Counted from the first letter of the stretch, positions 3,398 through 22,443 are shown. The stretch: DNA of 64,000 nt from a virus (IMGVR_UViG_3300027819_000008:27405-91404), one strand, 5' to 3'. The notes: generated by a model from the sequence alone, not told the origin. Translations and numbers: made by a program.

Positions 3398-3398
3398 G

Positions 3399-5245: not shown

Positions 5246-5286
5246 GTTTGATACCGACGGCCTGACATACGGCTCGCGTAGTGGCC

Positions 5287-5375
5287 TTATATGACACAAG
5301 GACCCTCGCCTGCAGCTTCACTGCAGTGTGTGTGTGCGTTGTCGTTACCGGCCCCGAGATAAATCTTCACGCCAG
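5287..5375 (-). repeat. Q-repeat copy B (27-aa micro-ORF VKIYLGAGNDNAHTHCSEAAGEGPCVI)
   Basis: Its GTG start overlaps the clamp TGA stop (GTGA), the same coupling geometry as real genes in this genome. Paralogous to copies A, D and E and to the dpdA start. Confidence 0.5.
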
Positions 5376-6590: not shown

Positions 6591-7057
6591 TAAACGTGAC
6601 TCCAGGTTTGTCGTCGGCATATGTAAGAAATCATGACTTGAGAAACCCCATACCGTTTCGCAGCGACGCGCTGGCTGATCAGCCCACGCTTTCCTTTGCC
6701 AAGCCCCGGCCCACACACCCGGCGGATCTCTTTCACAACCGCGGCAGTTAGCTTTTTGGCAGCGCGCCCCTTATAAGTCTTGTCCGCCATGTTGGCGGCT
6801 TGAGTACCAAGGAACAGATGCGTCGGCTCGCCGCATGTTCCGGTATCACAGGTGTGGCAGACTTCCAAACCAACGGGGATAACCCCACGCACCAGAGTCC
6901 AGGCTAGCCTATGAACGAGCCAGCAAGTTCTCTGAAAAGTGACCGTGCCGTAAGCACCCCTCTCGTCATTGCACGCACCTTGCCAGAGCAGGCAGCCATT
7001 TGCAGAACGCTTGAACTTAAGCCAGAAGTCTGCCGGCATACTCGCTCGCTGAGGCAT
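6590..7057 (-). CDS. HNH homing endonuclease (free-standing)
   Basis: HNH core: CLLWQG...GYG...LVHRLAW...HTCDTGTCGEPTHLFLGT. The C-terminal tail is HTH-like. Sits between dpdA and dnaN. Confidence 0.8.
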   Translation of the reverse strand: MPQRASMPADFWLKFKRSANGCLLWQGACNDERGAYGTVTFQRTCWLVHRLAWTLVRGVIPVGLEVCHTCDTGTCGEPTHLFLGTQAANMADKTYKGRAAKKLTAAVVKEIRRVCGPGLGKGKRGLISQRVAAKRYGVSQVMISYICRRQTWSHV

Positions 7058-8011
7058 TTAAAAAAAGGACTTCTGCGTTGCCCGGCGCGACCAAGGACGA
7101 TCCACCCAGCTCTTTTCCAGATCGAGAAAAAATAGAACATTAAGCTCGTCGCGCTTCACGTAGTCCGTGGCCAGCTGCTCCGGCGCGTACCCCTTCCCCT
7201 CCACGTACGCAAGGATCGCGGCCTGCTCGGCCGGGGCGTACGTCTTGAAGTGGGCCCCGTCCTCGCTCAGCTTCGGCGAACGGTCGGAGAAGGACACGTT
7301 GTGCACCTTCCCGCCGAGCGGCACGTAGCAGCCGCCGAAGTTGCCGACCTTGACCCACGACGTGCTATCGACCGAGAACCAGGGATACATCTGCATGAGC
7401 GCGATGCTCGTCAGCCCGAACCCGTGGAAGCGGCGGAGGGGCCGGCCCTCATCGTCGGTCAGCAGCTCCATGGAGCGGTCCAGGGACTTGATGCGGTCCG
7501 CGGACGTCAGCCCCGGAGCGGCCAGCCCGCCGAGCGCGAAGTACTCGGCGTGGTCCATGAGCTTCCGGAGCCACTTGAGGTCCTCGCCCCGGTGGTACGT
7601 GTGGATGAGCTGGACGCCGGACCCCCGCAGCTTCTTCTGGAGGTACGCGTAGTTCTCCCACCCGCGCTCCGCGGCGCGCTCCACCTCGGCCGCGGACGCC
7701 GGCTGCCCCGGCTTCCCCGGGATCACGTCCAGGTTGGCGACGACGGTGAACGCGTCCCGGTTCGCGAGGACGAAGTCCGCGTAGTCGTCCAGGTTGATCT
7801 CCGACCCCTTGGCCCAGGCCGTGAACGCCCCGGAGTCCAGGAACAGGTCCACTGCCGGCTTGCCCCCACCGCTCATGAACACCTCCGCCCACGGCAGCCG
7901 CGCCGGGGTCTCGCGCACGATCGCGTACGAGTGCAGGCGGCGCCGCGCCCCGACGCGGGCCACGTTGGCCTCGCGCGTGCGCTCCAGGCTCCCGGCCAGG
8001 TACACCCTCAT
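7058..8011 (-). CDS. dpdA: DpdA-like DNA 7-deazaguanine transglycosylase (TGT superfamily)
   Basis: LFLDSGAFTAW matches the TGT catalytic TDSGGFQ motif. No zinc-site cysteines, which is typical of DpdA. Co-located with the preQ0 biosynthesis genes. The start MRVYLAGS is duplicated in the Q repeats. Confidence 0.6.
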   Translation of the reverse strand: MRVYLAGSLERTREANVARVGARRRLHSYAIVRETPARLPWAEVFMSGGGKPAVDLFLDSGAFTAWAKGSEINLDDYADFVLANRDAFTVVANLDVIPGKPGQPASAAEVERAAERGWENYAYLQKKLRGSGVQLIHTYHRGEDLKWLRKLMDHAEYFALGGLAAPGLTSADRIKSLDRSMELLTDDEGRPLRRFHGFGLTSIALMQMYPWFSVDSTSWVKVGNFGGCYVPLGGKVHNVSFSDRSPKLSEDGAHFKTYAPAEQAAILAYVEGKGYAPEQLATDYVKRDELNVLFFLDLEKSWVDRPWSRRATQKSFF

Positions 8012-8078
8012 CGCTTCAGCGCCGCCTTCATTACGCTGCTGTTTCTGTCCGCATAGGTAACGAGCAGGCGCACGCCGC

Positions 8079-8145
8079 TCACGCGAAGGACCATCTTCGC
8101 CACCGCTGTACTGTTAGGTGCCCGGCCAGGTACACCCTCACCGCT
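8079..8145 (-). repeat. Q-repeat copy D (20-aa micro-ORF VRVYLAGHLTVQRWRRWSFA; duplicate of the dpdA 5' end)
   Basis: A 24-nt near-identical copy of the dpdA start region (GTGAGGGTGTACCTGGCCGGG), 129 bp upstream of the genuine dpdA ATG. Confidence 0.45.
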
Positions 8146-8192
8146 GTGGCCTGAATCCTAGGAGCCTGCCGAGGGGAACGGACCGGCGATTG

Positions 8193-8295
8193 TCACCGTT
8201 CCCGTACGAAAAGAGCACCCGCCCCCCCCTTGGCGACCACGGACTTCGTGTGGGCCACGTCGTTCTTGCCGGCGCCGAGATACACCTTCACCGGC
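8193..8295 (-). repeat. Q-repeat copy E (32-aa micro-ORF VKVYLGAGKNDVAHTKSVVAKGGAGALFVRER)
   Basis: Its GTG overlaps the folE TGA stop (GTGA). Protein-level and nucleotide-level similarity to copies A and B. Confidence 0.5.
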
Positions 8296-9193
8296 GGATC
8301 AGCGCGAGGAACTCCGCGCGGGTCTCCGGGTGATCGCGGAAGACGCCGCGCATGGCCGACGTGACCATGGTGCTCTCCGGCTGCCGCACCCCGCGCATGA
8401 CCATGCAAAAGTGCGTGGCCTCCACCACGACGGCCACCCCGCGCGGCTCCAGGGCCTGCTCGAGCTCCAGGGCCACCTGCTGCGTCAGGCGCTCCTGCAC
8501 CTGCAGCCGGCGCGCGTACTTTTCCACCACGCGGGACAGCTTGGACACCCCGATGATCTTGGTGGACGGCAGGTACCCCACGTGGGCGCGCCCGAAGAAC
8601 GGCAGCATGTGGTGCTCGCAGTGGCTGACGAACTGGATGTCCCGCGAGATCACGACCTCGTCGGTCAGCCCGTCCTCGAACGTAGTGAGCGCCGGGGTCA
8701 TCGCGTACCCCCCGAACAGCTCCTTCCACGCCCGGGCCACGCGGGCCGGCGTCTCGCGCAGGCCCTCGCGCTTCGGGTCCTCCCCGAGGAACTCGAGCAT
8801 GCGCGTGATGATCTCGCTGCCGGGTTCCTCCTGCTTCTCGTAGGGGTACACGACCCAGTCGCCGGTCTCCTCCACCAGGTAGGTCGGCACCGACCGCGAG
8901 GCCGGGCGGACGTGGAGCACCGCCGTCAGGTGGTCGGGGTAGCGCGCGAGCGTCTCCCCGCTGTCGCAGATGTCGTCCACCACCAGGCACCCGGGCTCCG
9001 GGGTCTCCAGCAGGACCGGCTCGCGACCGCACTGCTGGGCCAGGGCCCGCGCGAGCAGCATGGCGACCGGGACCCCGCCGCTCGGGACCGGGTAGAGCGC
9101 GTCGAAGCGCGCCCCACGCGCGCAGATTGCGCTGGCCAGCTCCTGGGCCAGCAGGTCCAGCTCCGTCCAGGTGACCCGCCGCTGCACCCGCAT
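8288..9193 (-). CDS. folE: phosphoribosyltransferase-like domain fused to GTP cyclohydrolase I (FolE)
   Basis: The C-terminal ~185 aa carry the FolE signature (FVSHCEHHMLPFFGRAHVGYLPSTKIIGVSKLSRVVE...ATHFCMVMRG). The N-terminal ~116 aa look like a type I PRTase (VPSGGVPVAMLLARAL...LVVDDICDSGETL...WVVYPYE). ATG at 9193 overlaps the queE stop (ATGA); the track N-terminus is out-of-frame overlap. Confidence 0.75.
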   Translation of the reverse strand: MRVQRRVTWTELDLLAQELASAICARGARFDALYPVPSGGVPVAMLLARALAQQCGREPVLLETPEPGCLVVDDICDSGETLARYPDHLTAVLHVRPASRSVPTYLVEETGDWVVYPYEKQEEPGSEIITRMLEFLGEDPKREGLRETPARVARAWKELFGGYAMTPALTTFEDGLTDEVVISRDIQFVSHCEHHMLPFFGRAHVGYLPSTKIIGVSKLSRVVEKYARRLQVQERLTQQVALELEQALEPRGVAVVVEATHFCMVMRGVRQPESTMVTSAMRGVFRDHPETRAEFLALIRR

Positions 9194-9969
9194 CAGGCCA
9201 CGCCCAGCATCTTGTGCGTCTGCAGCGACAGCCGCCACTCCGGGTGATCCATCAGGGCCCGGAGGCAGAGCTCGGTGGCGCGCCGGGAGCAGGACATGGG
9301 CTGGACCGTCAGGGAGATCGGCCGGCGCGCGTCGCGCGGGCGCAGGTCCTGGGTCAGGCGCAGGTGCTCGGCGTGCCGGGACAGGAACACCTCGTAGGCC
9401 ACCACGTCGCGCTCGCTGCCGACGATCCACTTGACCTCGTTGGCCTCCGCGAGCACGTGCGGGTGGATCTGCAGGCGCCCGGCCGGCTTCGGCGAGACGC
9501 ACACCCAGTCCCACACGCCGGAGATGGGGTACACCCCGGAGGTCTCCAGCGCGGTCTTGATCCCGTGCCGGTGCAGCGCCGAGGTCAGCGCCCCGCAGTC
9601 GTGCCACAGGGGCTCGCCGCCGGTGACCAGCGCCCAGCGCGGCGGGTGGCCGTTGACGACGTCCCCCACCTGAGACGCGCTGAGGTCGGGCGCCGGAATC
9701 GGCCTACCCTCGTCCCCACCCGACAGCGAGGAGAAATTCTGGTCCCAGCTCTCCGGCGTGTCGCAGAAGATGCACCCGACCGGGCAGCCCTGGAGGCGCA
9801 CGATGGTCATCGGTGTGCCGCAGAGCGAGCCTTCCCCCTGCACGGTGGGGTAAATGCGATTGATCCTGTACCGCGTATAGTCGCGGCGGTTGAGCGGCCA
9901 GTCCGCACCGGAGGGGGCGACCGCGCCGTACTGTGCGGGTGTGAGGACCCGGTCCGCCGCGGGGATCAC
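9193..9969 (-). CDS. queE: 7-carboxy-7-deazaguanine synthase QueE (radical SAM)
   Basis: CPVGCIFC matches the Cys-x3-Cys-x2-Cys radical-SAM motif. LVTGGEPL and LSLQTHKMLG blocks are typical of QueE. Confidence 0.85.
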   Translation of the reverse strand: MIPAADRVLTPAQYGAVAPSGADWPLNRRDYTRYRINRIYPTVQGEGSLCGTPMTIVRLQGCPVGCIFCDTPESWDQNFSSLSGGDEGRPIPAPDLSASQVGDVVNGHPPRWALVTGGEPLWHDCGALTSALHRHGIKTALETSGVYPISGVWDWVCVSPKPAGRLQIHPHVLAEANEVKWIVGSERDVVAYEVFLSRHAEHLRLTQDLRPRDARRPISLTVQPMSCSRRATELCLRALMDHPEWRLSLQTHKMLGVA

Positions 9970-10346
9970 TCACCGTACTCCGCGCGCGACGTGCACGTCT
10001 CGTCGATCACCACCGCCCGAAGCCGGACCCCGGGCAGGTCCACCAGGTGGGCGCGCACGCGCTCGAACAACCACCGCGCGATGTTTTCCGACGTCGGGTG
10101 TCGCATGTTGAGCGTCTCGTTCAGGTAGTGGTGATCCAGGTACTGCTCCACGAGCGGCTGCACCGCGGCCTTGAGGTCCCCGTAGTCCGCCAGCATGCCG
10201 GCCTTGGCCCCGTCCTGCTGCAGGTACGGCCCGACGACGCGGACGCGCCCCCGCCAGGAGTGGCCGTGGAGCCTCTGGCAGCGACCATCGTGGTCCGGCA
10301 GCTTGTGGGCCGCCTCGAACGTGAATTCTTTCTCCAGCACGTACAT
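9966..10346 (-). CDS. queD: 6-carboxytetrahydropterin synthase QueD
   Basis: FEAAHKLP...CQRLHGHSW motif characteristic of PTPS/QueD. 126 aa. Confidence 0.85.
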   Translation of the reverse strand: MYVLEKEFTFEAAHKLPDHDGRCQRLHGHSWRGRVRVVGPYLQQDGAKAGMLADYGDLKAAVQPLVEQYLDHHYLNETLNMRHPTSENIARWLFERVRAHLVDLPGVRLRAVVIDETCTSRAEYGE

Positions 10347-10934
10347 TCACGCACCTCCGTCATGCATGCAGCGCTTCTCGGCCGCGCACCCGCCGTCCGG
10401 CGTCGTCAGGCAGTCCGCGTCCGGTGGGCGGCGCAACCGGCGCCACACCCACAGCGCGAACACGGCCACCGCCGTCACCCACGCCTTGCCGACAACCTGC
10501 CCGGGGAGGTACTGCAGGGACCCGAACGCGAGCGCGAGGAAGAGCGCGCTGTCCACCACGAGGCCGACCGCGTTGGACGCGGCCACCGCGAGCAGCCACC
10601 GGCGGCGCCGCAGCGGGGCGTACACCGCGAGGTCCGCGAGCTCGGACAGCAGGAACGCCGCCCCGCTCGCCAGCGCGAACGCCGGGGACACCACCGCAGA
10701 GCAGAGCGCCCCGAGAACCACAGCGGCCAGGACCCCGCGAAGCCCGACCGCGTCGTGCAGCAGGTCGCGCAGGGTGAACGTCAGGCCGGCGAAGTACACC
10801 CCCGCGGGGGCCAGCAGGCCGAAGCCGACGGGGACCGGGCCGAGGTGCACGATCGCGAGGTTGGCCGCGAAGATGGTCCCGATGAACGCGGCCATCAGGC
10901 CGCTGACCCGACCCGACACCGGCCCGATCCGCAT
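10347..10934 (-). CDS. putative YhhQ/Vut-family queuosine-precursor transporter (membrane)
   Basis: Multi-pass membrane protein containing an ...TFTLRDLLHD... block, positioned between queC and queD. ATG at 10934 lies 11 nt after the queC stop. The upstream part of the track ORF is junk. Confidence 0.45.
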   Translation of the reverse strand: MRIGPVSGRVSGLMAAFIGTIFAANLAIVHLGPVPVGFGLLAPAGVYFAGLTFTLRDLLHDAVGLRGVLAAVVLGALCSAVVSPAFALASGAAFLLSELADLAVYAPLRRRRWLLAVAASNAVGLVVDSALFLALAFGSLQYLPGQVVGKAWVTAVAVFALWVWRRLRRPPDADCLTTPDGGCAAEKRCMHDGGA

Positions 10935-10945
10935 GCCCGGGCCGC

Positions 10946-11623
10946 TCACGCCGCGTACTCCGTCGGGTCCGCGACGCCGGCGAGGTCGAAGGCCTCGCGC
11001 CTCTCGGTACACGTCCCACAGCGCCCGCAGTGGACCGGCCCTCCCTCGTAGCACGACCACGTGGCTGCGAACGGAACCCCGTGGTCCGCACCGACGGCCA
11101 CGACGGCCGCCTTGGTGACGTTGAGGAACGGGGCGTTCAGCCGAATGCCCGGCGCGTAGTGGCACTCGCGCGCGGCACCCTGCATGGCGCGCACGAAGTC
11201 CCCGCGGCAGTCCGGATAGATCGCGTGGTCCCCGGCGTGGGCCGCGTACGCGACCTCCTCCGCGCCCGAGGAGATGGCCCAGCCGATGGCCACGGCCAGC
11301 ATGATCATGTTGCGGTTCGGGACCACCGTCAGCTTCATGGTCTCGTCCGCATAGTGTCCGTGTGGAACCGCGACGTCGTCGCTGGTCTGGGAGGACCCGG
11401 CCAGAAACGGGCGCAGCGCGGTGAGATCGGCCACGCGGTAGGGAACCCCGAGCACGCTGCAGATGGCGCGCGCGGCCTCCAGCTCCTTCCGGTGACGCTG
11501 CCCGTAGTCGATCCCGAGCGGCAGCACCTCGTGTCCGGCACCGCGCAGCATGTAGAGGAGCGTCGTGCTGTCCAACCCGCCGGAATAGATGACCACGGTC
11601 TTCATCGCGCGCTGATCCCCCAT
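10946..11623 (-). CDS. queC: 7-cyano-7-deazaguanine synthase QueC
   Basis: SGGLDS PP-loop motif and a CGRCGTC zinc site near the C-terminus. Confidence 0.9.
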
Positions 11624-12215: not shown

Positions 12216-13499
12216 TCAGGCCGGCTTGACGTACTTGCTGGCGATCATCGTGTTGCGACCCTTGAACCGGCAGCCGTAGCGCACGCCGGGCCCGACGTTG
12301 CCGTAGTACCGGAACACCTTGCCCTTGTCCCCCTTGCGCAGCCACTCCGCGCGGCTGCCACCCAGGTACACGACCTCGGTCCCCTTCGGGATGAGCTTCT
12401 CGCCGGCGCGCGGGACGTACTTCCCGCTGTCGATGCGCTCGAACGCCGTCTTGGCCGCCCACTCCTTGCTGCCGCTGCGCTCGGCGGCCGGCTTCTTGGT
12501 GACCTTCGCCGTCTTGGCCGCGTCGGCCTTGGCCTTCTTCGCGGCCTTAGCGGCCTGCTTCTCCGCCTTGGCCTTCTTGTCGGCGTCCGCCTTGGCCTTC
12601 TTATCGGCCTTCACCTTCTCCGCCTTCGCGGCCTTGTCGGCCTTCACCTTCTCCGCCTTCGCGGCCTTGTCGGCCTTGGCCTTGGCCTCGTCGGTCTTGA
12701 CCTTCGTGCTGTCCGCGCCGTTCGCGTCGGCCGCTTCCGCCGCCATGCCCGGCTCCATCGGGAACATCTGGTCCACCGCTCCCATTCGCTCCATCGTCGT
12801 CTCTCCTTTGTTCGGGGTCAACTGCCTCTTATCCACTATATCGAGCGGAGCACCATGAGGGTCGTCACGGTCGAGCGCGGCGCGCACCTGCCCCTCCACG
12901 CGCGACCACGCCAGCCGCAGCCGGGAAATGGGGACCTCGAGCACCTGTGCGAGCACGTGCTCACGCACCGACGCGAACGTTTGCTTGCCGCGCCCGCGAT
13001 GGGTCCACTGCCGGCGGAGCTCCGCGAGGGTTCCCGCCGCGGGTTCCAGGAGCTCGTGCAGCAGCCGGCGCTCCACCTCGGGGAGCAGGCGCTCGGCCTC
13101 CTGCAGTGCGAACTGGACCATCATGGTCCGCAGGCCGTCCTCCCCCACGGTCTCAGCCATGGCCCGGGCGCCGTCACCCAGGGGTTCGTCCAGGCTGAGC
13201 ACGCGCACGCCCCCACCCCCGAACGCGCGGCTGCGCGTGTAGGCCGTGATGCACGCGCGCGAGACCGTGGCCGTCCCCATCCGGCCCAGGTCCTCCGCCG
13301 GCACGCGGTGCCGGTGGCGCCGCCAGTTGCGCCAGAGGTTAAGCAGGCCGTCCTGGATCAGGTCCTCCTGGGACAGGTACGGGTGGTGCGACCCCCGCGC
13401 GCTGGACCCCGTGACGCGCTTGACCCACGGCTTCATCTTGACCAGGTACTGCTCGAACGCGACCTCCTCGTCCCGCGTCGGTGCGAGCTGCGCGCTCAA
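12216..13499 (-). CDS. sigma-70-family-like protein with C-terminal Lys/Ala-rich histone-H1-like repeats and a small C-terminal domain
   Basis: Region-2-like segment (YLSQEDLIQDGLLNLWRNW). Followed by KAKADKAAKAEKVKADKAAKAEK... repeats, then about 85 aa with a globular-looking composition. TTG start at 13499 overlaps the upstream TGA (TTGA). Confidence 0.45.
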   Translation of the reverse strand: MSAQLAPTRDEEVAFEQYLVKMKPWVKRVTGSSARGSHHPYLSQEDLIQDGLLNLWRNWRRHRHRVPAEDLGRMGTATVSRACITAYTRSRAFGGGGVRVLSLDEPLGDGARAMAETVGEDGLRTMMVQFALQEAERLLPEVERRLLHELLEPAAGTLAELRRQWTHRGRGKQTFASVREHVLAQVLEVPISRLRLAWSRVEGQVRAALDRDDPHGAPLDIVDKRQLTPNKGETTMERMGAVDQMFPMEPGMAAEAADANGADSTKVKTDEAKAKADKAAKAEKVKADKAAKAEKVKADKKAKADADKKAKAEKQAAKAAKKAKADAAKTAKVTKKPAAERSGSKEWAAKTAFERIDSGKYVPRAGEKLIPKGTEVVYLGGSRAEWLRKGDKGKVFRYYGNVGPGVRYGCRFKGRNTMIASKYVKPA

Positions 13500-14293: not shown

Positions 14294-14650
14294 CTAGGCC
14301 GGTGAGTGTAAACCTGAATCCTTGACCCGGGGCCACCGCGCGCGGGTGGCCGTGCGCAGCGCGCGCAGGGTCTTCGGGCGCCGGCCGGCGCGCTCGCAGC
14401 ACACCCGGCAGACGCCCTCGAGTGGACCCCACCGGCGCTGCTTCATGCGACGCTCGAACGTCCGGTCGCGCCCGCGGAGCACGCGCCCGACCAGCACCTC
14501 GGAGCCGGCCTCCACCGCGACCTGCACCACCCGCGCCCCGCGCCCGGTCCGGTGGTGCGCGATGCGCCGCTTCACGTGGACGGCCCACCCGACGTAGTGC
14601 CGGACGTGCCGGTACGGCGGGTCCAGGTGCAGGACGTAGACGCTGCTCAC
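14294..14650 (-). CDS. GIY-YIG family endonuclease (putative homing endonuclease)
   Basis: VYVL...YVGW with about 10-aa spacing, followed by KRRIAHHRTG (the R...H motif). GTG start overlaps the upstream TGA. Confidence 0.55.
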   Translation of the reverse strand: MSSVYVLHLDPPYRHVRHYVGWAVHVKRRIAHHRTGRGARVVQVAVEAGSEVLVGRVLRGRDRTFERRMKQRRWGPLEGVCRVCCERAGRRPKTLRALRTATRARWPRVKDSGLHSPA

Positions 14651-14940
14651 CGCCAAGCCTCCACGAGCCGACGGTCGTCGCGCCACGGCTCGAGATGCTT
14701 CTGGCACCGCATGAGCACGCCCTTGCGCTCGAGCGCCCGTACGGTGGCGAAGGACGTGGACCACCACGGGACGTCGTAGTTCCCGGAGTGGCGCCCCTGC
14801 ATCATCCGCATGGAGACGACCTCGGTGTCGGGTGTCGTCCAGAACCCCCCGCGCAGGCGCACGAGCACCCCGGTGTGCTCGCGCACGTAGTCCAGGACGC
14901 GCTGCTGCTCGGGACTCAGCTTCACCACGTTGTTGCCCAC
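14647..14940 (-). CDS. hypothetical protein
   Basis: GTG start with an AGGAGG Shine-Dalgarno site 6 nt upstream, immediately 3' of R-element 1. The MREPGPNP residues at the track N-terminus are an artefact of the conserved repeat. Confidence 0.35.
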   Translation of the reverse strand: MGNNVVKLSPEQQRVLDYVREHTGVLVRLRGGFWTTPDTEVVSMRMMQGRHSGNYDVPWWSTSFATVRALERKGVLMRCQKHLEPWRDDRRLVEAWR

Positions 14941-14955
14941 CGCCGTCCTCCTCTG

Positions 14956-15014
14956 CCGGGGGTTGGGACCCGGCTCCCGCATTACACGGGGGGCGAACCC
15001 CCGTGCCCTCTGCG
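14956..15014 (-). promoter_or_regulatory. R-element copy 1 (two-hairpin conserved 5' leader)
   Basis: On the minus strand: GCAGAGGGCAC, hairpin CACGGGGG-UUCG-CCCCCGUG, GUGUAAUGCGGGAGC, then hairpin 2 CCGGG-UCCCAAC-CCCGG, then a Shine-Dalgarno site. Confidence 0.55.
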
Positions 15015-15018
15015 CTCT

Positions 15019-15174
15019 CTACTTCACCGTGACCGGCACCCCGTTGACCGCGTGCACGTCCACCACCATGTCGCGGTGCGCGCCGGTCAGCCGAAACCTG
15101 ATGACGTCCGCCACCTTGGCCGGGTGGACGTCCGTCCGCACGGTCAGCACCACCCGGTACTCCCGCGCGCTCAT
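15019..15174 (-). CDS. hypothetical small protein (51 aa)
   Basis: ATG overlaps the upstream TGA (ATGA). Sequence MSAREYRVVLTVRTD... Confidence 0.3.
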   Translation of the reverse strand: MSAREYRVVLTVRTDVHPAKVADVIRFRLTGAHRDMVVDVHAVNGVPVTVK

Positions 15175-15377
15175 GCCCAGCTCCAGCCCACGACCAGCGG
15201 CGCGAAGCCCAGCCCCCACTCCGCCCGCCCGAGGGCCTGATCCAGGTCCTCCGCCTCCAGCGTCACGTGCACGTGCTCGGTCCCGCGCTCCGTGACCGTG
15301 AACCCGGCCCCCTCCAGGCGGTCGGCGTACTCGTTCACCTGCGTGGGTCCCGTGTAAATGCGCAGCTTGTAGGTCAC
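15171..15377 (-). CDS. hypothetical small protein (68 aa)
   Basis: GTG overlaps the upstream TGA. Protein-like C-terminus (VTYKLRIYTGPTQVNEYADRLEGAGF). Confidence 0.3.
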   Translation of the reverse strand: MTYKLRIYTGPTQVNEYADRLEGAGFTVTERGTEHVHVTLEAEDLDQALGRAEWGLGFAPLVVGWSWA

Positions 15378-15718
15378 GCCTTGGTCCCCTTCCGCAGCCG
15401 GGCCACGCGGGCCAGCCGCTCCACGATCACCACGTCCCACCGGTCGGTGGGCTCGGTCTCGTTCAGCACGCGCTCGGCGTAGGGCTCCCCCAGCTCCCGC
15501 TCCACCACCGCCTTCCACGCCACGTTCCGGCGCGGGTGGTTCTCCGCCGACACGAGCAGCCGCCCGCGCTCCACCGGCTCCATGGTCTCGCGCAGGCGCC
15601 CCAGCATCACGGCCTCCGCCACGTCGGCCTTTTCCTTGAGGTCCTTGGCCGCGTCCCGCGCACGCTTGAGCCGGCGCTGAAGGAGCAGCAGCTCCCGGAG
15701 CTCCGCCTGCGTGATCAT
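15374..15718 (-). CDS. hypothetical protein (114 aa)
   Basis: ATGA overlap with the upstream gene. Sequence MITQAELRELLLLQRRLKRARD... Confidence 0.35.
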   Translation of the reverse strand: MITQAELRELLLLQRRLKRARDAAKDLKEKADVAEAVMLGRLRETMEPVERGRLLVSAENHPRRNVAWKAVVERELGEPYAERVLNETEPTDRWDVVIVERLARVARLRKGTKA

Positions 15719-15978
15719 CGACCGTCCACCGGCGGGTGCTTCTTCTCCCGCCACAGGTCCCCGGGCCCGTCCGCCCACAGAAGGTGCGCAATGTCCCCCG
15801 CCGCGTCGCAGTGGTAGACGTGCACCTCCGCCCCAGCGTCCCGCATCCCGCGCACGTAGAGCTCGCAGGACCGGTAGTCGGCCTGCATCACCCGCTGCTC
15901 CCGGCCACCACCCCCGACCGCCAGCTGAAAGACGTTCGCAAGCCCCACCTGGTAGACCAGCGCCACTCTCTTGATCAT
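15715..15978 (-). CDS. hypothetical protein (87 aa)
   Basis: TAATG overlap with the upstream lipoprotein gene. Sequence MIKRVALVYQVGLANVF... Confidence 0.35.
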   Translation of the reverse strand: MIKRVALVYQVGLANVFQLAVGGGGREQRVMQADYRSCELYVRGMRDAGAEVHVYHCDAAGDIAHLLWADGPGDLWREKKHPPVDGR

Positions 15979-16514
15979 TACCGTCCCCCCTTCACGGGTT
16001 CCCCACCGATTGGCTTCCACACCTCGTCATCATCCTCACCGCGCCGGCGGCGGCGCGTGCGGCGCGCCAGCAGGGCCACCGCGAGGTCGTGCTCCCCGTA
16101 CTTGTGACACGGCGCCGTCTTGTGCCCGAGAAGCGACTCCAGCACGTGGCAGTACTCGTGCGCCTCGAACATCAGGTCCCTCTCGCTCGGCAGGGCCTCG
16201 ACCGTGCGGACGACCTTGAAGATGCGCCAGCCGTCGGGCGCGACCCGCTCCTGCTTGCAGCCCGCCATGTTGTCGGCCCCGCGCGGGCCACCGAACAGCC
16301 CCCCGACCGCGACGGCCTCGTAGCAGTGCCGGCGCGCCTCCGCGCGGTTCACCGTCACCACCACCGTCAGCAGCGGGTAGTTCCCGGTGGTCCACCCCGC
16401 GGAGGTCACCCGCGTGGTCGCGCAGCCCGAGAGGAGCAGCAGCGCGACACCCGCCGCCAGAACGACCTTTACCAGAAACCCAAACAGCTTGGCCGCGACC
16501 TCACGGTCCGTCAT
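15978..16514 (-). CDS. lipoprotein with HExxH zinc-metallopeptidase-like motif
   Basis: Signal peptide plus lipobox (LLLLSGC). HEYCH motif. GGAGG Shine-Dalgarno site 7 nt before the ATG. Preceded by R-element 2. Confidence 0.45.
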   Translation of the reverse strand: MTDREVAAKLFGFLVKVVLAAGVALLLLSGCATTRVTSAGWTTGNYPLLTVVVTVNRAEARRHCYEAVAVGGLFGGPRGADNMAGCKQERVAPDGWRIFKVVRTVEALPSERDLMFEAHEYCHVLESLLGHKTAPCHKYGEHDLAVALLARRTRRRRRGEDDDEVWKPIGGEPVKGGR

Positions 16515-16532
16515 CACCTACCTCCCTCCCTG

Positions 16533-16596
16533 CCCGGGGTTGGGACCGGGCTCCCGCATTGCGCCCGGGGTGCCGTCCACCCCGGGCCCCTCTGCG
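16533..16596 (-). promoter_or_regulatory. R-element copy 2
   Basis: Same flanking motifs as copy 1. Hairpin 1 is CCCGGGGUG-GACGG-CACCCCGGG, a different sequence with the structure kept. Hairpin 2 is CCCGG/CCGGG, with compensatory changes. Confidence 0.55.
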
Positions 16597-16601
16597 CTAT
16601 T

Positions 16602-17243
16602 TCACGTCCCCTCCTTCTGGCAGGCGGGGTCGTCGCACACGACGTAGCACCACGCTGGACCGTGCTCGTCCTCTTCACGGTGGACATGCGCGCTTTGGTT
16701 CCGCGCGCTCGCGATTGCTACGCGCTTGGCCTCCTCCGCGTCGTGGTGCTGCGCGGGGTCGCCGGGCCGCACGGCGTGGCGCTCGATCAGTCCGCTCGGG
16801 GTCGCGGTCGTGTCGTAGATCGTCGTCATCATCCTGTCCTCCGTTCGCCCGCCGCTCGTGCTCGATCGATGCCGCCTCGGCGTCGCTCCCATGGTCCGCG
16901 AGCCCACTCGGTGGAGCAGGGCGCGGGCGCGGCACGACCAGCACGGCAGCGGCTTAAGTTCTCCGGCGATGATGAGCCCACCGAGATTGCATGTGCAGGC
17001 CGTGCGACACCACTCGAGCGGCTGCACCTTGTCGATCGCGTCCTTCAGGGCGAACAGCCGACCGGCCGCCCCCTCCGGCAACGCGTGCCGCGTCTTCTCG
17101 TCCATCTCCGCCTCCCCCGCCGCGCGGCGATCGTCCTGCCGGCGGCGCTTCTTGGACCCGGTTTTGGCCTCGGCGCGGCGGCCCCAGTGGCCCCCGCCGT
17201 TCTTCGCCCCCGCGTGCTCGGTCCTGCGGACCCGGTTCGCCAT
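16602..17243 (-). CDS. hypothetical protein
   Basis: 213 aa. ATG overlaps the helicase TGA (TGATG). Contains a Cys-cluster (CRTACTC...CWSC). Confidence 0.35.
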   Translation of the reverse strand: MANRVRRTEHAGAKNGGGHWGRRAEAKTGSKKRRRQDDRRAAGEAEMDEKTRHALPEGAAGRLFALKDAIDKVQPLEWCRTACTCNLGGLIIAGELKPLPCWSCRARALLHRVGSRTMGATPRRHRSSTSGGRTEDRMMTTIYDTTATPSGLIERHAVRPGDPAQHHDAEEAKRVAIASARNQSAHVHREEDEHGPAWCYVVCDDPACQKEGT

Positions 17244-18826
17244 CACGCCTCCTTCTTAGCGCGGCGCCGGCCACCGCACTTCGCGGGCTTCGCCTCGGAA
17301 GCCGCCGGCCCGTCCGGCGGAACCTGCAAGGCCGCCAGCGCCTGGACCGGCGGCACCTCGCTCTGTGGGTCGCGCACCATGACCAGCGTCTCCTTCGCGC
17401 GGGTCACCGCGACGTAGTGGATATTTTTTTCCTCCTGGTCCACGCGCTTGCCGCGGCAGTAGAGCGTGTCCGCGAGCACGAAGACCCGCGGGGCCTCCAG
17501 CCCCTTGGCGCGGTGGACCGTGCTCAGGACCACGCACGGTCCGCGCTGCTCCCCGAACATCTCGTCGATCCGCGCGAGGAGCTCCGGCACGCCGGCCAGC
17601 CCCTCGCTCAGCGCCTCCAGCGTCTCGTACTGGTCGTACAGCACGTCGATGCGGGCCTGCGCTGACTGCCGCTTGGTCGCGCGCAGCTTGTCGGCCTCAC
17701 GCTCCAGCCACACGTTGAGCCGGGCCAGGAGCTCGGGTACCGCGTCGGTCTTCTGGCGCCGGATCAGCGCGACCAGCGCCTTCGTCATGTCGCGCCCCTC
17801 TATGCGGGCGCGCTTGTTCATCCGGTACAGCGCGAGGCAGTGCTTGGCCAGCGGCGCGTTGAGGCGCGAGAGGATGAAGTCGCTGGGCTCGGCGTCCCGG
17901 AGCATCTGCTGGGTCGTCGCCCGGAGGACCTGGCCCTCGGGCGCCGTCGGGGCCGCGATGAAGTCGGGGCACAGGGGCAGGGCCTCGGCCACGACCGCCT
18001 TCGGGCACCGGTACGTCACGGTCAGGGGCAGCTCCAGGGCGTCCAGCACGCCGCGCAGCCGATCGATGGCGTTGCTGTCCGCGCCGCGGAACCCGTAGAT
18101 CGCCTGCTTGTCGTCGCCGACCACGGCCATGCGCCCGCGGCACAGGCCCATCGCGAGGGCCAGCTGCACCGCGTTCATGTCCTGGGCCTCGTCCACGACC
18201 ACGAGGTCGTACGTCGGGTGGAGCCAGCGGTTGGCCACCGGCAGCCACACCATGTCGTCAAAGTCGATGGTCCCGTCCCGGTCCGTGGCCGAGGCGCAGG
18301 CGTCCAGCGCCATGACCGCGAGGTCCTGCACGGTGATCTTGTCCTCCCACCCGTTCTCCGGCACCACGCCGAACGCGTAGGCCATGTCCACCACGTCCTC
18401 CACCCCGGGGGTGGTCGGGCTGGTGTTCTTGATGACGGCAGCCAGGCGCTTGATCAGGCTGGCCGGGTAGTCCGGGGCGTTGTCCGGGCTGCCCCCGCGG
18501 GCCGCGGCCCAGGCGCGCTTGGCCAACCGAAACCCGCGCTCGTCGTCCACGCGCACGCCCGACCACTGCCGCCGGATGAGGCCGAACCCCAGCCCGTGCA
18601 GGGTCTTGGCCTGCGCGCGGGGGTTCCGCAGCCGCGCCGTCAGCTCGTCCGCGATGCGCTTGTTGAAGGCGCACAGCATGATGCTCGTTTCCGGCGCGAA
18701 GTTGATGGCCTCGAGGATGGTCGTGGTCTTGCCCGTCCCGGCGCGGGCCCGCACCACGAGGTGCCCGGCCCCGACCCTGAACCACTGGAAGATCGCCCGC
18801 TGCTGGTCGCTCCACTCGCGCCCCAT
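17243..18826 (-). CDS. UvrD/PcrA-family SF1 DNA helicase
   Basis: Walker A ARAGTGKT, VVDEAQD, GDDKQAIYGFRGAD, STVHRAKGLE and YVAVTRAK motifs. ATG at 18826 with an AAGGAGG Shine-Dalgarno site; the track N-terminus is encoded by R-element 3. Confidence 0.85.
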   Translation of the reverse strand: MGREWSDQQRAIFQWFRVGAGHLVVRARAGTGKTTTILEAINFAPETSIMLCAFNKRIADELTARLRNPRAQAKTLHGLGFGLIRRQWSGVRVDDERGFRLAKRAWAAARGGSPDNAPDYPASLIKRLAAVIKNTSPTTPGVEDVVDMAYAFGVVPENGWEDKITVQDLAVMALDACASATDRDGTIDFDDMVWLPVANRWLHPTYDLVVVDEAQDMNAVQLALAMGLCRGRMAVVGDDKQAIYGFRGADSNAIDRLRGVLDALELPLTVTYRCPKAVVAEALPLCPDFIAAPTAPEGQVLRATTQQMLRDAEPSDFILSRLNAPLAKHCLALYRMNKRARIEGRDMTKALVALIRRQKTDAVPELLARLNVWLEREADKLRATKRQSAQARIDVLYDQYETLEALSEGLAGVPELLARIDEMFGEQRGPCVVLSTVHRAKGLEAPRVFVLADTLYCRGKRVDQEEKNIHYVAVTRAKETLVMVRDPQSEVPPVQALAALQVPPDGPAASEAKPAKCGGRRRAKKEA

Positions 18827-18843
18827 GGGGGCCTCCTTTTCGT

Positions 18844-18902
18844 CCCGGGCTTGGGACCGGGACTGCACATTACACCGGGAGCCGGCTCCCGGTGCCCTCT
18901 GC
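18844..18902 (-). promoter_or_regulatory. R-element copy 3
   Basis: Hairpin 1 is CACCGGGAGCC-GG-CUCCCGGUG. Hairpin 2 is CCCGG-UCCCAAG-CCGGG. Lies immediately 5' of the helicase Shine-Dalgarno site. Confidence 0.55.
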
Positions 18903-19455
18903 TAGAACAGCGCCTCGCGCAGCTTGACCTCCGCGAGCCACTGGCTGAGCGTCCGGCGCTCCAGCCGGTAGCTCGGGGTGGCGTGCACGTACGTGATCCA
19001 CTGCTCGGGCTCCCGGAGCACCCCGTCCAGGGTCAGGCCGCTCCGCGCGGCGTCCGGCACGTCGGGGGTCTCCAGCCGCCGCACCGGCTCGATCCCGACG
19101 CTGAACGAGTGCCACCGCGCAACCGTCACGTTGCCGCGGTGCGTCCCGTGCTTCGTCTTGTACGTGAGAGTCACCACGAGGTCCGGCCAGCGCGCGTCGT
19201 GGAACGCCACGTCGTACCGCAGCATGTCCGCGATGGCCTCCACCTGCCCGTCCCCGGCCCCGAACGGCAGGCCCCTCCCGGTCAGGCCCCGACGCTGGAT
19301 GCGCCACACGTGCACCTGCTTGATCGTGCGCTTCGGGTCCACCTCGGCGTCCACCCGCAGCTTGCCGGTGGTGTCGTCGTACGCGAGCTTGCCGCGCAGC
19401 GCCCTGGCGGCGCGGTCGGCCTCCCACTTGTCCTCGCACTGCACGCTCACCTTCA
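18902..19455 (-). CDS. hypothetical protein (184 aa)
   Basis: ATG (MKVSVQCEDKW) with an AGGAG Shine-Dalgarno site. Preceded by the degenerate R-element 4. Confidence 0.4.
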
Positions 19456-19471
19456 TGGGTAACTGCTCCTT

Positions 19472-19520
19472 TCCGGCCGGACTTGGGACCGGCCTGCGCA
19501 TTACCGCCACTGCCCGTCCC
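19472..19520 (-). promoter_or_regulatory. R-element copy 4 (degenerate; hairpin 1 absent)
   Basis: GGUAAUGCGCAGGCCGG-UCCCAAGU-CCGGCC then Shine-Dalgarno site. Keeps hairpin 2 with the conserved UCCCAA loop. Confidence 0.45.
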
Positions 19521-19671
19521 CAAACGTGTCCCTGATCCACCGCTTGGGCTTGAGCGTGAGCACCACGAACTCCGGCATCGTGGTCACCGCGTCCAGCTCC
19601 GCCACGTCCCGGACCGGCACGAACTGCGGGTGCCGGCACGTCCCGCACGACACGCTGAGCATCCTGGGCAT
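19501..19671 (-). CDS. hypothetical small protein (56 aa)
   Basis: ATGA overlap with the upstream gene. Cys-x2-Cys motif (SCGTCRH). Confidence 0.3.
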   Translation of the reverse strand: MPRMLSVSCGTCRHPQFVPVRDVAELDAVTTMPEFVVLTLKPKRWIRDTFGDGQWR

Positions 19672-19934
19672 CACCGCCCGCCTTTCTTGACCGGGCACAC
19701 CCACACCGCGGTCTCGTCGTGCTCCTCGTTGTGGTAGAGGTGCACCGTCCCCCGCAGCTTGCCGCCGAGGTTCCGGGCCAGCGCGTCCATCGGGTCGGTG
19801 CGCTCGCCGAGGTACACCGGGAAGGCCCCGGCCTTCCGCAGCTCGTCCTGCAGCACCTCGGCCTGCGCGTCGTCCTCGCGCATGGCGGCCAGGAACTGCG
19901 CGTCCACCTTCCGCTTCAGCTGGGCGTACGTCAT
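19671..19934 (-). CDS. hypothetical protein (87 aa)
   Basis: TGATG overlap with the upstream gene. Confidence 0.35.
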   Translation of the reverse strand: MTYAQLKRKVDAQFLAAMREDDAQAEVLQDELRKAGAFPVYLGERTDPMDALARNLGGKLRGTVHLYHNEEHDETAVWVCPVKKGGR

Positions 19935-20116
19935 CACTTGGCCTCCTCAGCCCGCGGGAACGCGTACCGCTCCACGCGCATGAAATTGGACTTCTGCTCC
20001 AGCTTAGTGATGAACTGCTGCATGCCGCGCTCGCTGCGGAACGACTTTTCCTTGGTGGTGAACTCGCCGCGCCGGTTGGTCTCGGTCCACTGGATCGTCC
20101 ACGTACCCATTACCAT
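19934..20116 (-). CDS. hypothetical small protein (60 aa)
   Basis: TAATG overlap with the upstream gene. Lys/Glu/Thr-rich, non-junk composition. Confidence 0.35.
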   Translation of the reverse strand: MVMGTWTIQWTETNRRGEFTTKEKSFRSERGMQQFITKLEQKSNFMRVERYAFPRAEEAK

Positions 20117-20364
20117 TAATGGTTCTCCCTTTTCACCAGCGTGGCGTACGTCTTGTCCATCTCGTACTCCTGTACCCGGAGGATGGCCCCGCGCGCAATG
20201 ACCCGGAGCCGGCGCTCAAACCCGGCCGGCGCGAGTTCATCACCCTGCTCGTCCACCTCGTACCCGCTCAGCGCGACCGGCGTGTCCCTGACGACCCGGA
20301 GGTAGCGTCCGCACCGCTCGCTCAGCACCGAGCCCCTGAACCACACCTTTACGTACCGGACCAT
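20116..20364 (-). CDS. hypothetical protein (82 aa)
   Basis: ATG with an AAGGGAGG Shine-Dalgarno site. The track N-terminus MREPGPNP comes from R-element 5. Confidence 0.35.
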   Translation of the reverse strand: MVRYVKVWFRGSVLSERCGRYLRVVRDTPVALSGYEVDEQGDELAPAGFERRLRVIARGAILRVQEYEMDKTYATLVKRENH

Positions 20365-20379
20365 GTGGCCTCCCTTGCG

Positions 20380-20440
20380 CCGGGGGTTGGGACCCGGCTC
20401 CCGCATTACACGGTGGGGCGGGCCCACCGTGCCCTCTGCG
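20380..20440 (-). promoter_or_regulatory. R-element copy 5
   Basis: Hairpin 1 is CACGGUGGG-CCCG-CCCACCGUG. Hairpin 2 is identical to copy 1. Confidence 0.55.
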
Positions 20441-20977
20441 TTACGACTTGGAGTGCACCTCGCACCGCCCCGCGATGATCGGGCACGTGGCCGCGGTAAA
20501 CGCTGCCGCATGATCCGCGCGCCAGCGCCGCTGCCATTCCGCGTTGCGAGCGTCCTGAAGCCGACCGGCTTCGACCCCCACCGCAGCGTTGTCCGTGGCC
20601 GCGTGATCCGCGCACCGATCACCCCGCGTCGCGTCCTTTGTGCACTGCACCGCGCGCACCAGCGGCAGAATGCCGTTAGAGTACTCCGGCCCGGTCACCA
20701 GCTTGAGGCCGGCGCAGCGGACCCGGTCGCGGCTCTCGACCGGCACGTTCACCACCGGGGCCGTGAACACCCGCGCGTACTGCGCCTGGGCCCACGCCTT
20801 GGCCCAGAGGGTACCGACCCGCTTCAGGGCCAGCGCCTGCGAGCCGTGGAAGGAGTACGCGATCAGCTTGCCGTCGTCCTTGCGCTCCACCACGACCGCC
20901 GCCACGTACTCGTGCTCCGTTTTGCGTTCCGCGATCAGCTGCCCGTCCACGATCACCTGCGCCTTGAACTTGGCCAT
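20441..20977 (-). CDS. hypothetical protein (178 aa)
   Basis: ATG (MAKFKAQVIVDG). First gene downstream of the 450-bp control region. Confidence 0.4.
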   Translation of the reverse strand: MAKFKAQVIVDGQLIAERKTEHEYVAAVVVERKDDGKLIAYSFHGSQALALKRVGTLWAKAWAQAQYARVFTAPVVNVPVESRDRVRCAGLKLVTGPEYSNGILPLVRAVQCTKDATRGDRCADHAATDNAAVGVEAGRLQDARNAEWQRRWRADHAAAFTAATCPIIAGRCEVHSKS

Positions 20978-21004
20978 GGTAGTCGTCTCCTTTGGGGGTG
21001 CACT

Positions 21005-21070
21005 GCGTCCTCTGCCTTTGGGTCCCGACTTGGAACGGGCCGCGCGGTGCGCGCGGGTGGCATTACGCTC
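21005..21070 (-). promoter_or_regulatory. R-element copy 6 (rearranged variant)
   Basis: GUAAUGCCAC, hairpin CCGCGCGCACCGCGCGG, then GGGACCCAAAGGCAGAGGA, then AAAGGAG Shine-Dalgarno site and ATG. Confidence 0.4.
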
Positions 21071-21289
21071 GTGGCGTACCCGGGGACGTGCGGCCGGCGG
21101 CGGTCATGTGATGACCCGCCATGTGGTGGCCCTGGTCCCCGTTCAGCTGGCGACCCGTCCGGCGCCTCCATCGTGCGCCTTGGGGTGGGGGTCTGGCCCT
21201 GCGTCCGCCGTGGTCCCCCTTACCGCCCCGCCGGGTTTTGCTGGTCCCGGCTACCCACCGCGTTCACTGCAACTCCCTACCTGACACCA

Positions 21290-21375
21290 CCATTAAACCA
21301 CCCCCGGGGGTGTTGATCAAGCGAAAAAATCAGGGGGTTTTATTGGGGTTTTCGCGTGTTTTGGCCCCCGCGCAA
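21290..21375. promoter_or_regulatory. AT-richer repeat tract (GGGGTTTT x3, CCCCCGGGGG, TTGATCAA) in a large intergenic region
   Basis: Local GC is far below the genome average. Lies between the primase stop and the early small-gene cluster. A nearby inverted repeat GGTCAT-GTG-ATGACC is at 21102-21116. Confidence 0.3.
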
Positions 21376-21426
21376 CGGTGGGTCAAGCACAGATCCCGGC
21401 GCGCACCGGAGGAACATTAAGGCGCC

Positions 21427-22443
21427 CTAATACCCGCGCAGGATGTCCGAGACCAGCGAGGCGGGGCCCGCGCCCGCGCTCCGGCGCTCCAGATCCGCCC
21501 CGGAGCCGGAATCCTTGCCGCCGACCCACGCGCCGACCTGCACCGGGAACCCCCACGCGCGCAGGTCCTCGGCGTACAGCCGGCCCCGGGCCTGTGCCGC
21601 GGGCTCGTTGTCCAGCGCGGGGATGACGCGCGACGGCTCCAGCGCCGCGATCAGCGCCAGCTTCTCCGGCGTCAGCGCGACGCCGAGGAGCGCGAGCGCG
21701 TGCGGGCGGCGGTCACGGTCGTCGCGGTGCCAGCGCATGGCGTCCCCCGGACCCTCCACCAGCAGCAGCTCCGCGCCGCGCAGCTCCGGCCGGTAGTTGA
21801 AGAGCATGGCGGAGGCCGGACGCCCGCACTCCTTCATGTAGGCCGACGTGCGGTACTTCGGCTCCTGCCCCGGCAGCAGCGCGCGGGCCTGGAACGCGAC
21901 CGGCCCCGGCATGCAGATCGGGATGACGATGCGGCGCGCGTAGGGCCCTGACCAGCACGAGCCGAGGCCCCACACCGCGGCCTGCGACCAGCCGAGCCCC
22001 CACTGGCGCTGTAGGAACCCGGCCGCGCCCCGCGTGAGCGGGGAGGTGGGACTGAGGTCGCGCAGCCAGCGGACCTCCTTCGGGAAGGTGACCCAGTCGT
22101 CCCCGCGCTCCGGGACGGGCGCGCGCGCGGTGGGGGCGCCACGGAACTCCCGGAGCAGGAACTGCCAGGCCTCGGGCCGGGTGATGCGTTCCACGCGAGC
22201 GACCCACTCCGCGGCCCCGCCGTCCAGGCGCTCATTTGCCGCGCACCCGAGGTTGAAGCACCCGGCCGTCCACCCGGTGACGGAGAGCCACCCACGACCC
22301 TTGCGCTCGCCGCAGAGCGGGCAGTCGAAGGTGCGGACGCCCTGATCGTAGCCGCGCCCGCCGGCCGTGTTGCGGATCGTGACGCGCCGAGTGAGGTAGC
22401 GCTCCAGGTCCACGGTGAGCCGCGCGGTGGCCCAGCCGGTCAC
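21427..22443 (-). CDS. DNA primase (zinc finger + TOPRIM, DnaG/T7-gp4-like)
   Basis: CPLCGERKGRGW...GCFNLGC zinc finger. TOPRIM motifs LLLVEGPGDAMR (EGxxD) and ALDNE (DxD). Confidence 0.8.
   Translation of the reverse strand: MTGWATARLTVDLERYLTRRVTIRNTAGGRGYDQGVRTFDCPLCGERKGRGWLSVTGWTAGCFNLGCAANERLDGGAAEWVARVERITRPEAWQFLLREFRGAPTARAPVPERGDDWVTFPKEVRWLRDLSPTSPLTRGAAGFLQRQWGLGWSQAAVWGLGSCWSGPYARRIVIPICMPGPVAFQARALLPGQEPKYRTSAYMKECGRPASAMLFNYRPELRGAELLLVEGPGDAMRWHRDDRDRRPHALALLGVALTPEKLALIAALEPSRVIPALDNEPAAQARGRLYAEDLRAWGFPVQVGAWVGGKDSGSGADLERRSAGAGPASLVSDILRGY

Follow-up and report, generated by a model that had tools for sequence, protein, structure and literature searches.

We describe here a 64,000-nucleotide stretch of viral DNA (IMGVR_UViG_3300027819_000008:27405-91404; the window, by which we mean the whole stretch analysed) in which an element repeated six times on the minus strand, between positions 14,941 and 21,070, punctuates an operon of mostly small genes. 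Judged by its sequence, the element is a known self-cleaving RNA, the twister ribozyme (clan CL00120), and not a new kind of RNA, and its copies probably cleave themselves and thereby process one long polycistronic minus-strand phage mRNA. The window comes from a 70,150-bp metagenome contig (ORJL010303855.1, assembly GCA_900218215.1) of about 70% G+C, with nearly all genes on the minus strand and the gene content of a tailed phage (capsid, tape measure, DnaB, primase, DNA polymerase and others). An earlier note on this DNA had reported six two-hairpin elements on the minus strand, each shortly before a Shine-Dalgarno (SD) sequence and a start codon, and these are borne out at the positions it gave. 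The six copies are:

14957-15014, minus: copy A, type-P5 twister (RF02684, 57.6 bits; alignment and fold)
16534-16596, minus: copy B, type-P5 twister (RF02684, 42.1 bits)
18845-18903, minus: copy C, type-P5 twister (RF02684, 54.0 bits; alignment)
19477-19514, minus: copy D, truncated twister (RF02684, 25.5 bits against a gathering score of 37.6, E 0.07; P1 deleted)
20381-20440, minus: copy E, type-P5 twister (RF02684, 54.7 bits; alignment and fold)
21004-21069, minus: copy F, type-P1 twister with P3 (RF03160, 43.1 bits, E 3.7e-6 over the window in a relaxed scan)

A scan of the window against Rfam at curated thresholds returned exactly four matches, all to RF02684, the type-P5 twister ribozyme. 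These are copies A, E, C and B, at the scores listed above against the gathering score of 37.6 bits, with E-values over the whole 64 kb from 2e-9 to 2e-5. Apart from the twister matches, no Rfam family reached E 0.1 or better in the window, and no other ribozyme class was found there. On the minus strand the four full copies share one layout, namely CGCAGAGGG, a variable G+C-rich hairpin, (G)UAAUGCG, a short linker, a hairpin with the loop GUCCCAA(C/G)CC, the SD sequence and the start codon. In the Rfam alignments the first hairpin of the earlier note is stem P1 and the second is stem P4; a reading of the sequence confirms the stems quoted for hairpin 1, in four copies, and for hairpin 2. The note had missed an outer helix and two pseudoknots, all of which covary. 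The helix, P2, is CGCA paired with UGCG. In pseudoknot T1, GAGGG of the L1 strand forms three Watson-Crick pairs with CCC of the P4 loop, and in pseudoknot T2 the dinucleotide following P2 pairs with two nucleotides of the P4 loop. The alignment predicts cleavage at the bond that joins the nucleotide following P1 to the A of AAUGC. Those helices, pseudoknots and cleavage site are the features that define the twister family (PMC5408937). RNAfold, which is blind to the family, independently recovers the two hairpins together with P2 in each full copy (z-scores -2.2 to -3.5), and a direct-repeat search places the four full copies in one family. The motif GGTCCCAA occurs six times in the 64 kb against 1.4 expected, with five of the six in the array region on one strand.

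In copy A, P2 is formed by 15014-15011 and 14981-14978, P1 by 15005-14998 and 14992-14985, and P4 by 14972-14970 and 14959-14957; T1 joins G15008-15006 to C14967-14965, and T2 joins G14977-14976 to C14962-14961. Cleavage is predicted between U14984 and A14983, and the copy is followed by the SD sequence GAGGAGG and a GTG start at 14940. Copy B has a 10-bp P1 and carries C instead of U before the predicted cleavage site (C16561 and A16560); this position, 5' of the scissile bond, is the one of lower conservation in the twister family (PMC5408937). The first bases of copy C are overlapped by the upstream stop codon TAG (18904-18902), cleavage is predicted between U18872 and A18871, and the SD sequence AAGGAGG leads to the ATG at 18826 of a gene for a UvrD-type helicase. 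Copy E begins right after a TAA stop codon (20443-20441), would be cut between U20408 and A20407, and precedes the SD sequence GGGAGG and an ATG at 20364.

The same linear layout had been claimed for every copy. It holds for A, B, C and E and fails for D, which is half a copy only, and for F, which is permuted and has an extra stem. Copy D retains the 3' half (UAAUGC, the T2 partner, and P4 with its loop) and lacks GCAGAGGG, hairpin 1 (P1) and the GAGGG strand; a model built from the window copies gives it 21.1 bits. The UAA of copy D (19503-19501) terminates the upstream open reading frame (ORF). In a pattern survey of all the twister-bearing loci collected, a recognisable 5' half was missing from one of 225 twister 3' halves, and that one is copy D, which is probably a decayed, inactive remnant. 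We also inspected copy D by eye as a different permutation, looking downstream for P2', GAGGG and P1' and upstream for GAGGG and P1; neither arrangement fits. Copy F is circularly permuted, with an open P1 and an added P3 of 7 bp, and belongs to the 5' leader of the gene that opens the array. Its minimum-free-energy fold recovers P1, P2, P3 and P4, and cleavage is predicted between U21065 and A21064. The copy has UUCCAAGU in place of UCCCAAGC (loop UUCCAAG), and its L1 strand is GAGGA in place of GAGGG. Its T1 is therefore UCC:GGA where other copies have CCC:GGG, and its T2 is AC:GU where GC:GC is found elsewhere, both changes being compensatory. Because these double changes keep both pseudoknots, we read copy F as a functional copy. 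Covariation of the pseudoknots is thus visible within the window itself, since T1 and T2 differ compensatorily between copies: T2 is GG:CC in A, B and E, GC:GC in C (unlike those three) and AC:GU in F, with GC:GU also occurring, and T1 is GGA:UCC in F.

For a wider comparison, homologous loci were gathered with a pattern fixed on the conserved core of the element (86 stretches of viral contigs and 38 stretches of species-representative genomes), and were scanned with a covariance model derived from copies A, C and E. This gave 188 further copies in the 86 viral stretches (E<0.001) and 50 in the 38 bacterial and archaeal genome stretches, the latter from hosts of many phyla. Pairs were counted in the 150 best matches, which comprise 142 distinct sequences, over a structure of 20 pairs made up of P2, P1, P4, T1 and T2. 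Standard pairs occupy 97.4% of the paired cells, against 69.1% in shuffled alignments and at most 44.6% when the partners are slid by one to three columns. Changes on both sides occur in 19 of the 20 proposed pairs, and none of 500 shuffles reaches any of the observed measures. By helix, the paired cells amount to 100% in P2, 96.9% in P1, 99.5% in P4 and 99.8% in T1, and double changes are found in all pairs of P1, all pairs of P4 and two of the three pairs of P2. Ten of the 11 variant T1 rows are exactly compensatory (GAG:CUC, GUG:CAC, AGG:CCU, GGA:UCC, GCG:CGC and UGG:CCA). T2 is complementary in every one of the 142 distinct rows (types AC:GU, GC:GC, GG:CC, AG:CU and CG:CG), in one of two registers set by the length of P2, three or four pairs. 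The sequence AA follows the cleavage site in all 150 homologues, preceded by U in 135 and, as in copy B, by C in 15, and GUCCCAA is near-invariant among them. The proposal of the earlier note that a structure is under selection is in this way supported for an RNA fold.

Such copies often form arrays in the other stretches collected. In 18 array loci (145 kb, scanned with all of Rfam) there were 97 matches at Rfam thresholds, all of them Twister-P5; no hammerhead, other ribozyme class or other RNA family was found in these arrays. Density in the 18 loci reaches 13 copies in 12 kb. The densest array among the stretches collected, with 15 copies of type P5 all on one strand in 8 kb (1133-7798 of OY762226.1, a Vicinamibacterales chromosome assembled from a metagenome), is presumably part of a prophage.

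In the window, from the primase gene (21427-22443) to position 14647, all intergenic gaps of more than 40 nt hold a twister or the remnant, and the remaining gene junctions over this interval are overlapping or abutting. The layout of the operon is:

14647-20977, minus: punctuated operon of 14 genes, mostly small ORFans, and a UvrD-type helicase (17243-18826) (contig gene calls, Pfam, PHROGs)
copy F to copy E: one gene
copy E to copy D: four genes
copy D to copy C: one gene
copy C to copy B: two genes (the UvrD-type helicase and one more)
copy B to copy A: five genes
after copy A: a further unit
21070-21426, minus: gene-free stretch of 357 nt from the primase stop codon to the first ribozyme (contig gene calls)

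Ten array proteins were scanned against Pfam and PHROGs, and apart from the helicase none had a significant family match. The placement seen here recurs among the homologues, which lie on the coding strand in a strict order of stop codon, ribozyme and SD sequence. A long upstream ORF on the same strand is present in 127 of the 150, its stop codon lying mostly -2 to +8 nt from the first paired base of the ribozyme, and in 39 a UAG stop codon contributes part of P2. An SD sequence and a start codon follow P4 at 11-35 nt in 119 homologues. Both features together are found in 104 of 150, compared with 11 of 150 random positions on the same strand, and in a control with the opposite strand the two counts, for the upstream stop and for the SD sequence with a start, drop to 50 and 10.

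The gene-free stretch at 21070-21426 is presumed to hold the promoter and a leader that cleavage at copy F would remove. Two related viral contigs, L296 and L297, have equivalent stretches (10970-11377 and 3673-4173, respectively) that are well conserved between the two and weakly similar to the window; the distance from primase to first ribozyme is about 360-450 nt, and a GGCC-GAAA/GAGA-GGCC hairpin is among the parts conserved in L296 and L297. These leader stretches contain no plus-strand ORF longer than 41 amino acids in either relative, and a relaxed Rfam scan of a relative's leader gave implausible matches only and no credible family. The stretch could be a promoter with a structured leader, or a non-coding RNA. 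A further observation concerns gene calling. The AUG in UAAUGCGGGAGCC (14982, 16559, 20406 and similar positions, minus strand) opens a frame encoding MREPGPNP, which makes ORF finders extend or invent N-termini. An example is ORF 14647-14982, whose real start is the GTG at 14940 behind its SD sequence. This artefact, which the earlier note had reported, is real: ATG CGG GAG CCG GGT CCC AAC CCC lies inside the element.

Each intact copy, as a member of the family, would fold into P1, P2, P4, T1 and T2 and cut its own backbone, and such self-cleavage gives ends with a 2',3'-cyclic phosphate and a 5'-hydroxyl (PMC8782182). After a cut by a type-P5 copy, the stop codon would stay on the upstream message, about 35 nt from a new 3' end made up of the 8-10-bp G+C-rich P1 hairpin and a 2',3'-cyclic phosphate. 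The downstream message would start with a 5'-hydroxyl and AAUGCG, expose about 11 free nucleotides, and continue into the P4 hairpin and its own SD sequence and start codon. Cutting in this way would divide the operon into six units with one to five genes apiece (five between successive elements and one after copy A), each with defined, structured ends and a ribosome-binding site insulated from the upstream context. Stability and translation could then differ from unit to unit, because the ends are structured and the ribosome-binding site is freed. At the head of the array, the type-P1 copy F would trim off the 357-nt leader, and the first message would carry nearly all of the ribozyme at its 5' end. 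A different permutation fits at this position, where no upstream message needs a protective hairpin, although this is a single case. What the data show is the identity of the family, the covariation and the strict placement; cleavage in vivo, and with it an effect on stability and translation, we infer, and we think it probable that the operon is processed in this manner. Processing of polycistronic mRNA has been proposed, and not established, for bacterial twister and hammerhead ribozymes (PMC6765202). The placement between stop codon and ribosome-binding site fits this idea, as does the conserved slot with unrelated genes described below. The earlier note had listed several cis-regulatory options for the element. 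RNA processing is the one that stands; a site acted on by a protein does not, given the match to the self-cleaving RF02684.

Several points weigh against self-processing of the message as we propose it. Cleavage is deduced from family membership, for a sequence that comes from a metagenome contig. Copy F, at 43.1 bits, is below the RF03160 gathering score of 67.2, and copy D is without half of the twister motif. The collection pattern, being fixed on the core, inflates the apparent conservation of that core; it does not inflate the covariation of stems and pseudoknots. The efficiency of cleavage in vivo is uncertain, because the stop codon often lies in P2 and a terminating ribosome would compete with folding. 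Finally, any effect on expression may go in either direction, because the influence of a 5'-hydroxyl on stability depends on the host; the product of the glmS ribozyme is degraded by cellular RNases after cleavage (PMC6765202).

Comparison with related phages shows where the array sits. L296 and L297 share with the window the helicase loader, DnaB (42-48% identity), the primase (49%) and two proteins downstream of the array. They carry Twister-P5 arrays of seven and six copies, respectively, each beginning 400-500 nt after the primase stop codon, and no twister was found outside the array in the 21 and 13.7 kb examined. Among the genes inside the arrays of the three phages there is no recognisable homology (tblastn, E<0.01). 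As the position is kept and the genes between the ribozymes are unrelated, we regard the array as a conserved slot with variable cassettes. A single-sequence scan with the primase found no relatives and a profile scan found only L296, L297 and one more distant sequence (39%), which has no twister; the phage isolate collection yielded no close relative. Relatives of the window helicase were found at 89 other loci (16 viral and 73 from metagenomes; up to 55% identity), with no twister near any of them. The array thus does not travel with the helicase, and the helicase lineage is ruled out as its carrier.

These comparisons bear on one alternative, that the ribozymes mark, or spread with, exchangeable cassettes, either because the core offers homology for recombination or as selfish passengers, with mRNA processing being secondary. 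We consider this unlikely as the main explanation. It would suit the shared flanking genes and array site, the non-homologous genes between the ribozymes, the twister-free helicase relatives and an identical 33-nt 3' half in copies A and E, and hammerhead ribozymes are likewise reported to flank small non-conserved ORFs (PMC6155905). Homology at the DNA level, however, needs no compensatory changes in P1, P4 and two pseudoknots. The fixed coding-strand orientation and the tight spacing of stop codon, ribozyme and SD sequence would be left unexplained, and continuous homology is short because P1 differs in every copy. Cassette exchange and mRNA processing may coexist.

A second alternative is that an RtcB ligase encoded by the phage (23221-24504) seals the ribozyme ends and circularises or re-ligates the mRNA units, which would make the phage a natural parallel to the engineered Tornado system. 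Its attraction is that the same strand encodes an intact RtcB some 2 kb upstream (Pfam PF01139, E 2e-117; PHROG 1075, E 1.8e-134), that RtcB joins exactly these types of ends (PMC8782182), and that the ends of each excised unit are complementary twister halves (P2 and T1). Yet a search with the window RtcB found none in the 86 twister-bearing viral stretches (tblastn), and a covariance-model scan found no twister in 80 phage RtcB loci (1.35 Mb), both sets being mostly partial contigs. The RtcB block is also missing from both array-bearing relatives. Variants of P2 and T1 covary within one ribozyme while its neighbours in the array are canonical, which argues that selection acts on the fold in cis rather than on pairing between the halves of adjacent ribozymes. 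Among copies with canonical cores, such as the P5 copies of the window, adjacent halves are compatible by default. With all three lines negative (tblastn, covariance-model scan and synteny comparison), a link between RtcB and the twisters is not supported, and we regard cutting and rejoining as very improbable. As a separate observation, RtcB is encoded on the minus strand between DnaB and primase, where the other small ORFs have no tblastn match in L296 or L297; it may serve in tRNA or RNA repair against host nucleases.

The remaining alternative, an element read by a protein or the polymerase (a terminator-promoter cassette, a translational operator or a site for a phage sigma-like protein), agrees with the position before genes, the G+C-rich hairpins and a weak sigma-70 region-2 match in ORF 12216-13499 (E 6.5e-4, below cut-off), but is scarcely credible, as the hairpins have no U-tract behind them (GUAAUGC comes after hairpin 1), none of the copies coincides with a site resembling a terminator or a promoter (the promoter scan covering consensus sigma-70 only), the copies fit a ribozyme covariance model including the conserved nucleotides of the catalytic core, and an operator or sigma-factor site would not explain compensatory changes in two long-range pseudoknots. 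The terminator, promoter and operator readings offered earlier are accordingly disfavoured.

Self-processing of the operon mRNA by its twisters is therefore the reading we retain. A much bolder extension, to which we give little credence, is that phages in general use twister arrays to make operons that process themselves. Any accessory gene placed between two ribozymes would then be released as an autonomous mRNA, and its unusual ends (a 5'-hydroxyl, and a 2',3'-cyclic phosphate behind a hairpin) would let it escape end-dependent RNA decay or RNA-targeting defences of the host. In this phage RtcB might also seal the ends, which might give circular or re-joined messages. On this bolder reading the post-primase slot with its unrelated cassettes would be an RNA-level counterpart in phages of an integron-like expression platform.

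The twister class was first described in Nat Chem Biol in 2014 (ref 23 in PMC6765202). The family is represented in Rfam, and earlier papers already associate twister and other small ribozymes with phage genes and with one another. The role of self-cleaving ribozymes in bacteria and phages is still described as open (PMC6765202, PMC5408937, PMC6155905). In the literature searched, which leaves the original twister papers aside, we did not find described a quantitative rule for the stop-ribozyme-SD arrangement, such dense arrays of type P5 alone, the post-primase slot with unrelated cassettes, or an operon that combines type P5, type P1 and a decayed half. The context reported here is unusually clean, with close to one ribozyme for each gene or small group of genes, between stop codon and ribosome-binding site, on the coding strand. 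The operon supplies concrete constructs and predicted cleavage coordinates for the mRNA-processing idea. For annotation, the element is a source of false N-terminal extensions (MREPGPNP...) in ORF calls.

Other features of the window are recorded here in their own right. Downstream of the array, the 427-amino-acid ORF 12216-13499 (minus) contains 9-nt-periodic repeats at 12495-12698 (CTTGGCCTT... on the plus strand) and is kept in the relative L009; it is probably the "sigma-like protein" of the earlier note. A set of genes for 7-deazaguanine synthesis spans about 7058-11600 (minus) and encodes QueC, PTPS/QueD, a QueE-like radical SAM protein, GTP cyclohydrolase I and a protein of the Vut_1 transporter family, together with a queuine tRNA-ribosyltransferase-like protein at 7058-8113; the counterpart in L183 is at 17222-20539. 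Gene sets of this sort are known in DNA-modifying phages. The family-A DNA polymerase is apparently split into ORFs 1748-3526 and 3853-5166 (minus), separated by a gap of 326 nt and matching consecutive parts of one PHROG polymerase profile (628-829 and 836-1240); the upstream ORF has a weak match resembling uracil-DNA glycosylase. An 885-amino-acid superfamily 2 helicase (ResIII/DEAD and Helicase_C; 28392-31049, minus) has an insertion at about residues 238-336 that resembles HINT/intein-splicing domains below curated cut-offs and may be an intein. A T5 A1-like "DNA transfer" protein (32469-34094, minus; PHROG 1745, E 7e-144) has its best matches, at about 45% identity, in jumbo phages of Xanthomonas and Stenotrophomonas.

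Compared with the type-P5 twister as described (RF02684), copies A, B, C and E show no structural difference, sharing P1, P2, P4, T1, T2, the loop nucleotides, the N-A cleavage dinucleotide, the closed P1 and the ends at P5 (PMC5408937). The window differs in that the flanks form no P5 stem, a stop codon and an SD sequence standing there instead, and in that its operon adds a type-P1 copy and a truncated half. Prokaryotic and phage hammerheads, whose biological role is described as still open, likewise have several self-cleaving motifs close together, flank small non-conserved ORFs without an assigned function and are persistently linked to phages and prophages (PMC6155905); the arrays treated here belong to another ribozyme class, only Twister-P5 being found in the 18 scanned. 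In the Tornado system, an RNA flanked by twisters acquires ends suited to joining by RtcB, which the window also encodes; in the loci searched, however, RtcB and a twister array were found together only in this genome, and the variant copies give no sign of selection for compatible neighbouring halves. The glmS ribozyme is also a self-cleaving element in a bacterial mRNA leader whose cleavage alters the fate of the downstream message (PMC6765202). Unlike glmS, which depends on a metabolite, serves a single gene and triggers decay, the window twisters are without a ligand domain and stand between many unrelated genes.

Two further systems are comparable in arrangement. The early mRNA of phage T7 is cut at intercistronic hairpins by RNase III into units, with a hairpin left at the upstream 3' end, and here too intercistronic hairpin elements divide a polycistronic phage mRNA. 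In T7 the enzyme is that of the host and the ends are a 5'-phosphate and a 3'-hydroxyl, whereas in the window the RNA would cut itself and leave a 5'-hydroxyl and a 2',3'-cyclic phosphate. RiboJ is an engineered insulator based on a hammerhead and a hairpin upstream of the ribosome-binding site, used singly, that frees translation from the upstream context. The likeness lies in a self-cleaving ribozyme followed by a hairpin just upstream of the ribosome-binding site; in contrast to RiboJ, the arrangement in the window is natural, uses a twister, is repeated along an operon and would shape the 3' end of the upstream message as well.

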